Positions 30,908 through 36,108 of a DNA stretch of 39,178 bases are shown here, piece after piece. The number at the start of each line of letters is the position of its first letter. Within the stretch, counting starts at the first letter, position 1. Source of the DNA: a virus; UHGV virus genome UHGV-0034768. One strand, 5' to 3'. Position numbers and translations under genes: made by a program. The notes under the pieces were generated by a model that saw only the letters and a program-made list of their open reading frames with translations, ran no database searches and was not told the DNA's origin.

Positions 30908-30930
30908 ACTTAACTATCACTATAGGACTC
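30908..30930 (+). promoter_or_regulatory. phage RNAP promoter directly upstream of the RNAP gene, ACTTAACTATCACTATAGGACTC
   Basis: Consensus match; +1 G at 30925, 74 nt upstream of the RNAP start codon. Confidence 0.75.
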
Positions 30931-30998
30931 AAGGTCTAAGACTCCAAGTGAAAGACCAAAGAGACTTAAGTGAAAGACTAATAACAAGGACTTTAAGT

Positions 30999-33680
30999 AT
31001 GAGCGTCATCTCCATTGACAAACACGACTTCTCTGATGTGTCTAACGCTATTGAGCCGTTTAACCTGCTGGCTGACCACTACGGGCAAGACCTTGCAGTC
31101 AAGCAACTTCAGCTTGAGCATGAGGCATACACTGAAGGCGAGCGACGTTTCATCAAGAACCTTGAGCGTCAGACAGAGCGCGGTGAACTGGCAGACAATC
31201 AGGTCGCCAAGCCTTTGATGCAGACTCTGGTCCCTAAGATTGCGCAAGCCGTCAAGGAGTGGCATGACGGTCCAGACGGGAAGATGTCAACATCTCGTCC
31301 TAGCGTAGCGTTCACCATGTTGAGCACTGAAGAGAAGGCCGTCAAGGACCGCTCTCTGCGCATCTCCTGTGAGTCTGCTGCGGTTATCATACTGAAGGTC
31401 ATCCTCTCCAAGCTGGTAAAGCCTGAAGGGATACCGATTACACCGATGGCCTCAGCGATAGGTCGCACACTTGAGGACGAAATCCGCTTCGGTCGCATCC
31501 GTGACAAGGAGAAGGAGCACTTCAAGAAGGCGATAGCTGAGAACCTGAACAAGCGAGCCGGGGCATCCTACAAGAAAGCCTACATGCAAGCTGTTGAGAC
31601 CTCCATGCTTGAGCAAGGTCAACTGGAAGATGCGTGGGGAACTTGGAGTCCGACCGAGGCGGTCCATGTTGGCATCAAGATGCTTGAGATTGTCATCCAG
31701 TCCACTCAACTGGTAGAGCTTAAGCGTTATGGTGCTGGCAATGCAGCGGCTGATGTTGAGATGGTCCACCTATCAGACTTCTGGGTCAAGAAGATGGCCC
31801 AACGTGGCTTCAGCCTTGCGGGTATCGCTCCAGTCTATCAACCTTGCGTAGTTCCACCTAAGCCGTGGACGGGTGTCGTAGGCGGTGGGTATTGGGCCAA
31901 AGGACGCAGACCGTTGCCACTGATTCGCTTAGGGTCTAAGTCTGCGGTAGCACGTTATGAGGACGTGTACATGCCTGAAGTCTATGACGCTGTGAACATC
32001 ATCCAGAATACACCTTGGAAAGTTAACAAGAAGGTGTTGGACGTGGTGAACATGGTCGAGAAGCTGAACAACACGCCTATTGATGATATCCCTCAGATGG
32101 AGCCACTGAAGCCTGAAGACTATGCGGGTGAGACTGAAGAGGAACTCAAGGCATGGAAGAAGGCTGCTGCTGGTATCTACCGCCGAGAGAAGGCCCGGCA
32201 GTCACGTAGATTGTCACTGAGCTTTATCGTTAACCAGGCTAACAAGTTCTCTCAGTTCAAGGCCATCTGGTTCCCGTATAACATGGACTGGCGCGGTCGC
32301 GTATACGCTGTGCCGATGTTCAACCCTCAGGGTAACGACATGCAAAAGGGTCTCCTTACTCTGGCAGTCGGTAAGCCTATTGGTGCTGATGGTTTCAAAT
32401 GGCTGAAGGTCCACGGTGCAAACTGTGCGGGTATTGATAAAGTCACCTTCGAGGAGCGCATCAAGTGGGTGGAAGACAACCACGACAACATCATGACTAC
32501 TGCTAAGGCACCGATGGACAGCATTGAGTGGTGGGGTAAGTTAGACTCTCCGTTCTGCTTCCTCGCGTTCTGCTTCGAGTATGCTGGCGTAATGCACCAC
32601 GGCCTATCTTACTCTTGCTCGCTACCGATAGCTTTCGATGGGTCCTGCTCTGGGATTCAGCACTTCAGCGCGATGCTTCGAGATCACATCGGTGGACATG
32701 CAGTAAACTTGACGCCATCCGGTAAGGTCCAAGACATCTACCGCATCGTATCCGACCGCATTGAGGAGGAACTTAAAGTCCTGCTGGTTAACGGTACGGA
32801 CAACGAGATGGTAACTCACGAGGATAAGAAAACTGGTGAGATTACCGAGCGTCTCAAGCTGGGGACACGAGAGCTGTCCCGTCAGTGGCTGACCTACGGT
32901 ATGTCACGCAAGGTTACTAAGCGTTCGGTTATGACTCTGGCCTACGGGTCGAAAGAGTACGGCTTCGCAGACCAAGTTTACGAGGACATCGTGATGCCAG
33001 CGATTGACTCAGGGTCTGGTGCCATGTTCACCGAGCCAAGCCAAGCGTCTCGTTTCATGGCTAAGATGATTTGGGAAGCTGTGAGTGTGACCGTAGTCGC
33101 TGCGGTTGACGCAATGAAGTGGCTTCAAGGTGCTGCTAAGCTGCTGGCTGCTGAAGTAAAGGACAAGAAGACAGGCGAAATACTGAAGCCTTGCCTTCCG
33201 GTACACTGGGTAACACCTGATGGTTTCCCGGTCTGGCAGGAATACCGCAAGAAGGATACAACCCGTCTGAACCTGATGTTCTTAGGGTCGTTCAACCTTC
33301 AGCCTACCGTCAACAGGGGTACGAAGAAAGAGCTGGACAAGCACAAGCAGGAGTCAGGCATTAGCCCGAACTTCGTCCACTCACAAGATGGTAGCCACCT
33401 CCGCAAGACTGTAGTCCACACGCACCGCAAGTATGGCGTAATGTCCTTCGCAGTGATTCACGATAGCTTCGGGACCATCCCGGCTGACGCTGAGTATCTG
33501 TTCCGTGGGGTCCGTGAGACTATGGTAGAGACCTACCGCGACAATGATGTGCTGCTTGACTTCTACGAGCAGTTCGAATACCAGCTTCACGAGAGCCAGC
33601 GCGACAAGTTGCCTGAGCTTCCGAAGAAAGGTAAACTGAACATAGAAGACATCTTGTCTTCAGACTTTGCATTCGCTTAA
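30999..33680 (+). CDS. gp1: DNA-directed RNA polymerase, single-subunit (T7 gp1-like)
   Basis: Start at MSVISIDKHDFSD (T7 MNTINIAKNDFSD) with AAGGA RBS; extensive identity to T7 RNAP including PWTGVVGGGYWA, FPYNMDWRGRVYAV, NCSLP.AFDGSCSGIQHFSAMLRD, HDSFGT, and C-terminal FAFA. Confidence 0.97.
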   Translation: MSVISIDKHDFSDVSNAIEPFNLLADHYGQDLAVKQLQLEHEAYTEGERRFIKNLERQTERGELADNQVAKPLMQTLVPKIAQAVKEWHDGPDGKMSTSRPSVAFTMLSTEEKAVKDRSLRISCESAAVIILKVILSKLVKPEGIPITPMASAIGRTLEDEIRFGRIRDKEKEHFKKAIAENLNKRAGASYKKAYMQAVETSMLEQGQLEDAWGTWSPTEAVHVGIKMLEIVIQSTQLVELKRYGAGNAAADVEMVHLSDFWVKKMAQRGFSLAGIAPVYQPCVVPPKPWTGVVGGGYWAKGRRPLPLIRLGSKSAVARYEDVYMPEVYDAVNIIQNTPWKVNKKVLDVVNMVEKLNNTPIDDIPQMEPLKPEDYAGETEEELKAWKKAAAGIYRREKARQSRRLSLSFIVNQANKFSQFKAIWFPYNMDWRGRVYAVPMFNPQGNDMQKGLLTLAVGKPIGADGFKWLKVHGANCAGIDKVTFEERIKWVEDNHDNIMTTAKAPMDSIEWWGKLDSPFCFLAFCFEYAGVMHHGLSYSCSLPIAFDGSCSGIQHFSAMLRDHIGGHAVNLTPSGKVQDIYRIVSDRIEEELKVLLVNGTDNEMVTHEDKKTGEITERLKLGTRELSRQWLTYGMSRKVTKRSVMTLAYGSKEYGFADQVYEDIVMPAIDSGSGAMFTEPSQASRFMAKMIWEAVSVTVVAAVDAMKWLQGAAKLLAAEVKDKKTGEILKPCLPVHWVTPDGFPVWQEYRKKDTTRLNLMFLGSFNLQPTVNRGTKKELDKHKQESGISPNFVHSQDGSHLRKTVVHTHRKYGVMSFAVIHDSFGTIPADAEYLFRGVRETMVETYRDNDVLLDFYEQFEYQLHESQRDKLPELPKKGKLNIEDILSSDFAFA

Positions 33681-33694
33681 CAGGAGAGATAGTT

Positions 33695-33895
33695 ATGAAA
33701 TTTGCACACAAGCAGACAGGAGTTAAGGGTGGGACTCAAATCGTGACCGTAACAGAACATAATGGCAAGGGTCTGGTGAAGACCACAGTCATTCCTACCG
33801 AGATGTCAAAACAGCTTAACGTCCAGTTCAAGTGGCTGGTTAAGCAGGTGGAGCAGACGCACGAGCAGGTCCTTAAAGAGGCGGCAACCAAATGA
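33695..33895 (+). CDS. hypothetical protein (66 aa)
   Basis: ORF with CAGGAGAGA RBS right after the RNAP stop; no T7 counterpart at this position. Confidence 0.55.
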   Translation: MKFAHKQTGVKGGTQIVTVTEHNGKGLVKTTVIPTEMSKQLNVQFKWLVKQVEQTHEQVLKEAATK

Positions 33896-33973
33896 CAGAC
33901 CTACAGTTACTGGCCTTGTGGCTGGGAGCACTAGCAGTACTCACTCTAATCCAACGCAGAAGAGGTTAACCAT

Positions 33974-34453
33974 ATGTTCGGTAAGTCAAAACTTAAAGCA
34001 CAAATCAAAGAGTTGAGCATGAAGGTGGCATACTTGGAGCGAGTCGTAACGGTCCGGGATAAGGACAACGAGAGGCTGAAGGTTAAACTTGCTGAATCAG
34101 AGCGTAAGCGCCTGACACCACCAGCGGCTGTAACTGTCAAGCGTATGGTAGGCATCAAGTTCAAGGCACTGTTCAACGGGCTGTACCAACCGACTGAGTT
34201 CAAGACAGGGCCTGGTAGCTGCGGGAAGAACGTTAAGCATTTCACCATATCGAAGACTGAACGCACCATTACCATCCACCAGCACCACGTAGACGGGTCT
34301 CAGAAAGACTTTGAGTACCGACTGAGCGACATCGATGGTCGCATCCAGTATGACTACGAGCGGGTTAAGGTCTATGGCGAGGAGGCAGAGCAGGAACGTA
34401 TAGTACAAGCCTTACGCAACAGACAACGATTATACCCTAAACTATCACTATAG
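33974..34453 (+). CDS. hypothetical protein (159 aa; N-terminal heptad-like helical region)
   Basis: ORF with GAAGAGG RBS; no T7 counterpart between gene 1 and gene 1.1; function unknown. Confidence 0.6.
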   Translation: MFGKSKLKAQIKELSMKVAYLERVVTVRDKDNERLKVKLAESERKRLTPPAAVTVKRMVGIKFKALFNGLYQPTEFKTGPGSCGKNVKHFTISKTERTITIHQHHVDGSQKDFEYRLSDIDGRIQYDYERVKVYGEEAEQERIVQALRNRQRLYPKLSL

Positions 34454-34458
34454 GATTA
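34436..34458 (+). promoter_or_regulatory. phage RNAP promoter (phi1.1 position), CCTAAACTATCACTATAGGATTA
   Basis: Consensus match; +1 G at 34453; overlaps the stop of the upstream ORF. Confidence 0.8.
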
Positions 34459-34529
34459 GACTCAAGGTCATGACTCAAAGTCGTGGCCTTCATGATTAAC
34501 CCTATAACCTAAACAACTGGAGCTACAAC

Positions 34530-34709
34530 ATGTATCAGAACACTATCAACTTCGAGCGCATCCGTGAACGTCAGCAGACTGAAGATTACATTCCGAAGGG
34601 CCGCAAGCTGAACAAGACAAAGCGTGGCGGTGGTGTCAAGGGTGCTTTCCGTAACGCTGAAGGTAAAGACTCTCTGGTAAATCAAGAGAAATACTTCGTA
34701 GGAGCGTAA
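34530..34709 (+). CDS. gp1.1: gp1.1-like small basic protein
   Basis: 59-aa ORF not in the supplied track; contains KGRKLNKTKR as in T7 gp1.1. Confidence 0.7.
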   Translation: MYQNTINFERIRERQQTEDYIPKGRKLNKTKRGGGVKGAFRNAEGKDSLVNQEKYFVGA

Positions 34710-34712
34710 GAC

Positions 34713-35000
34713 ATGGGCATGTTCTCAAGAGCACATAGTGGAAACCTGAACACCCTGCGTAAAGCCATCCACAACTGGCAGTCCGAGACCGACTATAACG
34801 CAGTGGTCAACACTTGGTTTGACCCAAGGATGAACAGGCACTGCGTCAGGGCGGTTATAGTCCACATTCATACACGAGAGGTCCTCATCGAGAAGGACTT
34901 CACGGAGTACCCGAATATCCACGACGAAGATGTGCAGACAGTAGCGGTTGCCACTTGGTTTAACAAACAGTTCAACGACTACACTGGTCGATTCCTTTAA
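34713..35000 (+). CDS. gp1.2: gp1.2-like protein (T7 gp1.2 inhibits host dGTP triphosphohydrolase)
   Basis: 95 aa; MG....SGNL N-terminus and HDEDV motif as in T7 gp1.2. Confidence 0.75.
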   Translation: MGMFSRAHSGNLNTLRKAIHNWQSETDYNAVVNTWFDPRMNRHCVRAVIVHIHTREVLIEKDFTEYPNIHDEDVQTVAVATWFNKQFNDYTGRFL

Positions 35001-36065: not shown

Positions 36066-36108
36066 TCAACCCAGTGGTCTTAGGACTGCTGGGTTTCTTT
36101 GCTTTGTG
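36066..36108 (+). terminator. early (TE-like) intrinsic terminator after the ligase gene
   Basis: AACCCAG...CTGGGTT 7-bp stem followed by TCTTTGCTTTG; same position as T7 TE. Confidence 0.6.

Follow-up and report, generated by a model that had tools for sequence, protein, structure and literature searches.

Gene 1.05 and a conserved 25-codon reading frame between the RNA polymerase gene and the phi1.1-type promoter of a Kayfunavirus-like phage

In phage T7, gene 1, which encodes the phage RNA polymerase, is separated from gene 1.1 by 184 non-coding bp that carry the promoters phi1.1A and phi1.1B and contain the primary origin. In T3-type phages, the promoter phi1.05, accompanied in T3 by the primary origin, is located between gene 1 and the small gene 1.05. 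Here we analyse the corresponding interval of the virus genome UHGV-0034768, a stretch of 39,178 nucleotides (the window) that represents a T7-group phage genome, Kayfunavirus-like and circularly permuted. The window shares with T7 the flanking genes 1, 1.1, 1.2 and 1.3 and a promoter ahead of gene 1.1, but the interval between gene 1 and that promoter is coding and promoter-less, and three open reading frames (ORFs) occupy positions 33695-34453, namely ORF-A (66 residues), ORF-B (25 residues) and ORF-C (159 residues). We consider it likely that they form a standard early accessory block of Kayfunavirus-like phages, made up of ORF-A, a single-pass inner-membrane micropeptide encoded by ORF-B, and gene 1.05, and that the three are independent small genes with the roles proposed below.

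The 1.4 kb around the block has matches in 390 phage records, the best being Escherichia phage TM1 with 93.7% identity; the other top regional matches are Hafnia phage yong1, P762 and EcoDS1, all of which belong with TM1 to the genus Kayfunavirus. Homologs of ORF-A and ORF-B follow gene 1 in K1F and EcoDS1 with the same order and overlaps and with the same promoter and hairpin downstream, but K1F lacks gene 1.05, with ORF-B set against the promoter, and EcoDS1 carries an extra ORF of 76 residues before ORF-A. To the T3 gene 1.05 group (T3, phiSG-JL2, phiYeO3-12/AP5, 285P, BA14, EcoDS1 and Erwinia phage L1) the locus is linked by a beta domain of about 75 residues with the same invariant residues, and to T3 and phiSG-JL2 in addition by a gene 1.05 end that overlaps phi1.1 and is followed by an R1.1-type hairpin.

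A preliminary description of the window, made from its letters and ORF translations, had taken the three reading frames for an insertion. The frames of 66 and 159 residues lie after gene 1 where it placed them, and the hydrophobic frame of 25 residues is real, although the positions given for it, 33893-33970, were one base off. That all three are genuine genes is borne out by their conservation in relatives, where they are intact, and by pooled ratios of nonsynonymous to synonymous substitution rates (dN/dS) of 0.19 for ORF-A, 0.20 for ORF-B and 0.25 for ORF-C, which indicate purifying selection on each of them. The notion of an insertion does not stand, since dozens of Kayfunavirus-like phages carry the full series A-B-C, or its first two members only, behind gene 1. 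In this group of phages the block is nothing unusual, and its main gene had been named and assigned to a Pfam family before.

Identity and distribution of gene 1.05

On sequence grounds ORF-C is gene 1.05 of the T3 group, because it scores 87.6 bits (E 5.4e-25) with the Pfam family PF25755 (Phage_T3_1_05), whose cut-off is 27, and because relatives carry an annotated gp1.05 at the same locus. The match passes the gathering threshold and aligns residues 58-128 with positions 2-73 of the 73-position profile, and ORF-C also belongs to phrog_8103 (E 1.6e-59). Annotated gp1.05 proteins are found in EcoDS1, T3, phiSG-JL2, 285P and Erwinia phage L1, and the gene follows gene 1 also in 285P, AP10 and Erwinia phage L1. 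The placement between gene 1 and gene 1.1, with the 3' end lying over the next promoter, is common to the window, T3, phiSG-JL2, 285P, AP10 and a further locus, L017. A T3-style phi1.05 promoter directly 5' of gene 1.05 was not found, and the space is taken by ORF-A and ORF-B; this promoter is a feature of the T3 locus rather than of the protein family.

The statement of the preliminary description that none of the ORFs has a T7 counterpart is correct for T7 itself, in whose whole genome tblastn and profile searches with ORF-A, ORF-B and ORF-C gave nothing better than E 0.18, but not for the T7 group, since the 159-residue ORF is gene 1.05. The description had also allowed that the ORFs might be recognized as known conserved genes of the T7 group; this is so for ORF-C, and ORF-A is a member of phrog_8082, a known family of conserved hypothetical proteins.

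The gene 1.05 family comprises 69 representatives at 50% identity, and homologs occur in 195 phage records across the Autographiviridae, with hosts that include Escherichia, Salmonella, Klebsiella, Yersinia, Erwinia, Pectobacterium, Pseudomonas and others. In a family alignment of 60 sequences, from which the conserved columns were taken, G79, C83, V87, Q103, F113, G122 and R123 are invariant and F76, G81, G84, D107, G108, K111 and Y115 nearly so. The family motifs F-K-x-G-x-G-x-C-G-K-x-V, Q-x-H-x-D-G-x-x-K-x-F-x-Y and D-I-x-G-R are all present in gp1.05 of the window. Neither a broad alignment nor P0260 and P0257, two distant homologs of the coil type, yielded usable loci in searches for related regions. 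In two larger proteins, P0264 (1173 residues) and P0276 (588 residues), residues 50-91 of gp1.05 were matched in 7-11 repeated stretches, and these matches, to repeats of the C-G-x-x-V-T-x-T-W-T-A-T-D type, are probably compositional and were set aside.

The presence of gene 1.05 was scored in 36 loci, collected with a degenerate ORF-B DNA pattern from IMG/VR and metagenome contigs and supplemented with loci from GenBank. The gene stands after ORF-B in about 21 of them and is absent from 14, that is, from K1F and 13 others (about 40% of the relatives), the remaining locus being unscorable where its contig ends. At the joint left by its absence, GGTTAACC passes directly into (C)TAAACTATCACTATAGG and ORF-B abuts the promoter. 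Gene 1.05 is a dispensable cassette, yet one that is selected where it is present (dN/dS 0.25). We call it dispensable because it is cleanly absent from K1F and the 13 other loci and because of a nonsense allele in Citrobacter phage SH3. The preliminary description had proposed that absence of the ORFs from otherwise identical isolates would point to an assembly artefact; absence from similar phages is indeed seen for gene 1.05, as in K1F, but what it reflects is a gene under selection that some phages have and others cleanly lack, and no artefact of assembly.

In SH3 (L010, 2501-2950), codon 71 of an otherwise well conserved gene 1.05 is changed from Y to an in-frame stop, which may be a natural nonsense allele or else an error in sequencing. 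At one edge of the cassette, GGTTAACC is an 8-bp palindrome (33964-33971) that holds the stop codon of ORF-B, and there is ACC microhomology on both sides (34434-34437); palindrome and ACC edges may mark a recombination joint.

ORF-B, a candidate inner-membrane micropeptide, and its neighbour ORF-A

ORF-B encodes the peptide MTDLQLLALWLGALAVLTLIQRRRG, a single hydrophobic helix of about 18 residues with a short basic tail. Its 17-residue Kyte-Doolittle mean of 2.29 is the highest among the 133 short ATG-initiated ORFs of the window, and the peptide has the features of a membrane peptide, with a hydrophobic helix of spanning length that is flanked by D3 on one side and by QRRRG on the other. 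By the positive-inside rule, this arrangement suggests that the N-terminus faces out and the C-terminus in.

All 36 loci contain ORF-B intact, at 25 codons. As part of this sample was found by a pattern that fixes several residues, we place the main weight on an independent set of 15 relatives found via gene 1.05 or regional similarity, in every one of which (15/15) ORF-B is likewise present and intact at 25 codons. Together with the window, these 16 sequences give a ratio of nonsynonymous to synonymous polymorphism (pN/pS) of 0.27 in the frame of ORF-B, whereas the two alternative frames give 1.17 and 1.00 and contain stops in 16/16 and 5/16 sequences. Among the 36 distinct sequences, nine codons vary synonymously only, Leu4 being written with five codons and Gly25 with four. 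The 14 phages without gene 1.05 preserve ORF-B down to its QRRRG tail, loci that lack ORF-A retain it as well, and it is the most constant element of the block.

In the databases, ORF-B is called as a gene in one variant only, a hypothetical protein of phage GA2A identified by exact look-up, and it is unannotated in the records of TM1, SFPH2, EcoDS1 and K1F. No sequence similarity to any family was found in Pfam, PHROG, PADLOC or NCBIfam, and tblastn of the 25-residue peptide against the phage collection returned no match, probably owing to low-complexity masking. Small single-helix membrane peptides include the type I toxins TisB, ShoB, Ibs and DinQ and the regulators AcrZ, MgrB, KdpF and PmrR. 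ORF-B resembles these in size class (25 residues), in its one helix and in its basic tail, a likeness that does not extend to sequence. It differs from them also in its place in the early operon of a lytic phage, in an arrangement for translational coupling to upstream genes, and in showing no sign of an antisense RNA partner.

These observations lead us to a more specific proposal, which we advance tentatively and with a little less than even confidence. ORF-B may be a real early gene for a 25-residue inner-membrane micropeptide that annotation pipelines have nearly always missed, that persists in all Kayfunavirus-like genomes examined, including those in which both neighbours are lost or swapped, and that acts alone on a host membrane target, with gp1.05 as a second, exchangeable factor near the membrane. 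Such a peptide would, for example, change the membrane potential, block the entry of DNA from competing phages, or block a membrane-bound defence or transport protein.

The neighbouring ORF-A matches phrog_8082 over its whole length (E 1.7e-40; residues 1-66 aligned to all 66 positions of the profile), a family that carries no assigned function. It has 155 homologs, nearly all of 66 residues, is basic (isoelectric point 9.8), and is identical in sequence, by exact look-up, to a hypothetical protein of phage ST31. Neither Pfam, PDB, NCBIfam nor PADLOC contained a match, and a sequence-profile search of the PDB gave nothing below E 0.2. Homology between ORF-A and the gp1.05 domain was considered and rejected, hhalign assigning it a probability of 0.3%.

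ORF-A is missing from three loci (L017, L042 and L056), in which ORF-B starts on the stop codon of the polymerase gene (TAATG). In L017 (4917-5564 of a Logan contig, ERR5094895) and in L056, ORF-B is paired with a Berlinvirus-like gene 1.05 that bears a membrane helix, and L042 has neither ORF-A nor gene 1.05; the interval between gene 1 and phi1.1 is mosaic. A second variable slot lies between gene 1 and the ORF-A homolog, where EcoDS1 (L001, 1797-2253) and also L014 and L027 carry an extra ORF of about 76 residues. The EcoDS1 record names its ORF-A homolog 'gp1.1', which looks like a mislabelling.

Structure of gp1.05 and possible roles of the block

AlphaFold, run with the 60-sequence alignment, predicts full-length gp1.05 with a predicted local distance difference test score of 95.2; modelled by itself, the domain scores 94.1. 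The model consists of a coil helix (residues 4-47), six long beta strands (53-133) and a C-terminal helix (135-153), in agreement with the heptad-like helical N-terminus and C-terminal domain seen in the preliminary description. Hydrophobic residues follow a 3-4 spacing along the first helix (L7, I11, L14, V18, L21, V25, L35 and L39), with Asn32 at a core position, and the sequence fits a coiled coil of the leucine-zipper type. When the alignment is mapped on the model, the conserved residues cluster in the loops between strands.

Three layouts of gp1.05 can be distinguished: the domain only, as in T3 (90 residues); coil and domain, as in the window; and a membrane helix followed by basic residues, coil and domain. 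The last is found in AP10, 285P, phiSG-JL2 and P0313, with 17-residue hydropathy means of 1.9-3.2, and by the positive-inside rule its coil and domain would lie on the cytoplasmic side of the inner membrane and close to it.

From these features we propose that gp1.05 forms a dimer or oligomer through its N-terminal leucine-zipper-like helix, and that the loops of the beta domain, with the motifs G-x-G-x-C-G-K, Q-x-H/C-x-D-G and G-R, could provide a binding surface. Because many homologs have an N-terminal membrane helix with basic residues, the family is probably located at the inner membrane, where it would act from the cytoplasmic face on a host target. ORF-B would insert in the inner membrane alone and act independently of gp1.05, and its occurrence without gene 1.05, without ORF-A, and beside a gene 1.05 with a membrane helix of its own is consistent with this. 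All three products may be non-essential factors of host takeover or phage competition, rather than replication or structural proteins.

Several points weigh against this proposal. The gp1.05 of this phage is itself without a membrane helix, and its location is extrapolated from homologs. The evidence for translation of ORF-B is comparative, and some residues were fixed in the pattern by which part of the sample was found. Literature searches on gene 1.05, gp1.05, PF25755 and the PHROG identifiers led only to genome-annotation tables, and within the searchable library neither an experiment nor a paper gives a function for ORF-A, ORF-B or gene 1.05; the preliminary description had likewise named no function for the C-terminal domain of the 159-residue protein.

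Searches for relatives of gp1.05 outside its family yielded no pointer to its function. A fold search in BFVD returned only uncharacterised homologs from the Autographiviridae, a sequence-profile search of the PDB gave nothing below E 0.2, and PADLOC and NCBIfam contained nothing meaningful. A P-loop nucleoside triphosphatase was rejected: the stretch GPGSCGKN lacks GxxxxGK[ST], its Lys and the residue after it differ among family members, the predicted domain, about 80 residues long, is all-beta and not of the alpha/beta NTPase fold, and a match to the P-loop of kinesin has E 0.83. The label 'microtubule-binding protein' given to the gene in TM1 and yong1 (MT808983, MK610268) was likewise rejected, as the best matches behind it are KKT4 with E 0.2, in the coiled-coil region, and KIF19 with E 0.83.

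Other explanations of the block were weighed against independent small genes. ORF-B and gene 1.05 might be halves of one membrane-anchored protein, arising by a gene split or joined in translation by a programmed frameshift at AGA-AGA-GGT-TAA: ORF-B joined to ORF-C would resemble the homologs with a membrane helix in its succession of helix, basic stretch, coil and domain, the 3' end of ORF-B has tandem rare AGA codons and an SD-like AGAGG (SD, Shine-Dalgarno sequence) right before the stop, and the frame of ORF-C is open from 33950. However, the spacer between the two genes measures 4 or 5 nt depending on the relative, which leaves their frame relation unconserved, phages without gene 1.05, such as K1F, have an intact ORF-B, it precedes in L017 a gene 1.05 with its own membrane helix, and the alleles of the two genes assort independently. 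Spacer, occurrence and allele data thus largely refute a split or fused protein, which we regard as very improbable. It is also unlikely, though less so, that ORF-B makes no functional peptide and is kept only as the carrier of the ribosome-binding site of gene 1.05 and as a coupling ORF that relays ribosomes in cis from gene 1 or ORF-A. Such a role would account for the SD sequence of gene 1.05 in the final codons of ORF-B, for this 3' end being the most conserved part at the DNA level, and for a start codon that overlaps the upstream stop in every lineage; it fits poorly with the constraint on the ORF-B frame in sequences found independently of it, with the nine codons of synonymous variation only, and with the retention of length, hydrophobic core and QRRRG tail in the 14 phages where no gene 1.05 is available for coupling.

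As regards gp1.05, the beta domain could instead be a barrel of the Sm, SH3 or WYL kind that binds nucleic acid or a ligand, namely RNA or single-stranded DNA, with DNA of the entering phage, origin transcripts or a defence signal as examples, rather than a host protein; we consider this improbable to about the same degree as a purely cis-acting ORF-B, and a nucleic-acid-binding role is the weaker alternative to a host target. That the block arose in assembly, or is foreign DNA recently inserted in this genome alone, has in its favour solely the contrast with T7. Many isolates of independent origin, and metagenome contigs as well, carry the same genes in the same order with protein identities of 51-98%, and the exact sequences of the 159- and 66-residue proteins are already present in public collections, so that these independent occurrences refute it and its probability is negligible.

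We therefore return to the view of three independent early accessory genes and to what it means for annotation. The 159-residue ORF should be named gene 1.05 (PF25755) and the 'microtubule-binding protein' label dropped, and the 25-codon gene should be added to Kayfunavirus genomes; this gene alone adds to what is already annotated. The interval between gene 1 and phi1.1 is a slot in which T7-group phages swap small early genes, and the three layouts of gene 1.05 together with its frequent loss are typical of host-interaction or anti-defence cargo. The novelty is modest, consisting of a strongly conserved but almost never annotated 25-codon gene and a clean presence/absence pattern of gene 1.05, and the current understanding of T7-group phages is unchanged by it. 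The conserved micropeptide does offer a cheap and well-defined target for knockout and expression tests.

Transcription unit, translation signals and flanking features

The phage promoter core CTATCACTATAGGA is present in the window in 10 copies with no more than one mismatch, and 17 matches at up to three mismatches compare with 2.9 expected. One of the 10 near-exact copies is the phi1.1-type promoter that the preliminary description had placed after the block, and the stop codon of gene 1.05 (TAG, 34451-34453) falls inside it. Another, an exact match, lies about 72 nt 5' of the polymerase ATG, a place where T7 has none. Judged from its position, this promoter would lead to transcription of the RNA polymerase gene by its own product, and would drive gene 1 with read-through into ORF-A, ORF-B and gene 1.05.

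A search for the promoter core gave no match between 30927 and 34442, and no terminator-like site was detected between the 30914 promoter and 34453, nor any before 36068. As neither a promoter nor a terminator separates gene 1 from ORF-A, ORF-B and gene 1.05, these are part of the gene 1 transcription unit, which implies co-transcription with gene 1, both from the early promoters of the host and from the 30914 phage promoter. A TE-like terminator, placed as the early terminator TE of T7 and EcoDS1 (annotated there in the EcoDS1 record), is predicted from its sequence to close the early transcription unit that holds the three genes.

All three ORFs have good ribosome-binding sites, as the preliminary description had stated, with an SD sequence 8-10 nt 5' of each start codon: AGGAG at 33682-33686 for ORF-A (8 nt), GAGG at 33878-33881 for ORF-B (10 nt), and AAGAGG at 33960-33965 for ORF-C (8 nt), the latter lying inside the last codons of ORF-B. 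Stop and start of ORF-A and ORF-B overlap as ATGA, and a spacer of 4 nt separates the ORF-B stop from the start of ORF-C. The ATGA overlap, followed by the short spacer and an SD sequence within the preceding gene, is a layout that would favour translational coupling along the block.

Downstream of the promoter that ends the block follow, in order, a hairpin, gene 1.1, gene 1.2, the ligase gene and the TE-like terminator. The hairpin may be an RNase III site by analogy of position, as the T3 and phiSG-JL2 records place the RNase III site R1.1 at the corresponding point. Rfam and tRNA scans of 33600-34600 gave no match. Coordinates are collected in Table 1.

Table 1. Positions of the genes and signals around the block in the window (MFE, minimum free energy)
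Feature	Position	Strand	Remarks
Phage promoter core 5' of gene 1	30914..30927	+	Exact core match; EcoDS1 annotates a 'phi' promoter there
Gene 1, phage RNA polymerase	30999..33680	+	Likely ATG start, 893 residues
ORF-A	33695..33895	+	66 residues
ORF-B	33892..33969	+	25 residues
Gene 1.05 cassette	33972..34436	+	465 bp; present or absent among relatives; ACC at both flanks
ORF-C (gene 1.05)	33974..34453	+	159 residues
Phage promoter, equivalent of T3 phi1.1	34436..34458	+	Core CTATCACTATAGGA 34442-34455; +1 G at 34453
Hairpin at T3 R1.1 position	34450..34505	+	MFE -21.3 kcal/mol, z -2.8
Gene 1.1	34530..34709	+	59 residues; PF08200, E 1e-10
Gene 1.2, dGTPase inhibitor family	34713..35000	+	PF10922, E 4e-5; phrog_2949, E 4.9e-30
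TE-like early terminator	36068..36105	+	12-bp stem, then T run; 3' of ligase gene

The length of gene 1 given here is that of gene 1 in K1F, and its C-terminus, SDFAFA followed by the stop, is kept in all relatives. A mechanical ORF call starts gene 1 at a GTG at 30948 (910 residues), whereas the ATG at 30999 fits both K1F and the alignment with the N-terminus of the T7 protein.
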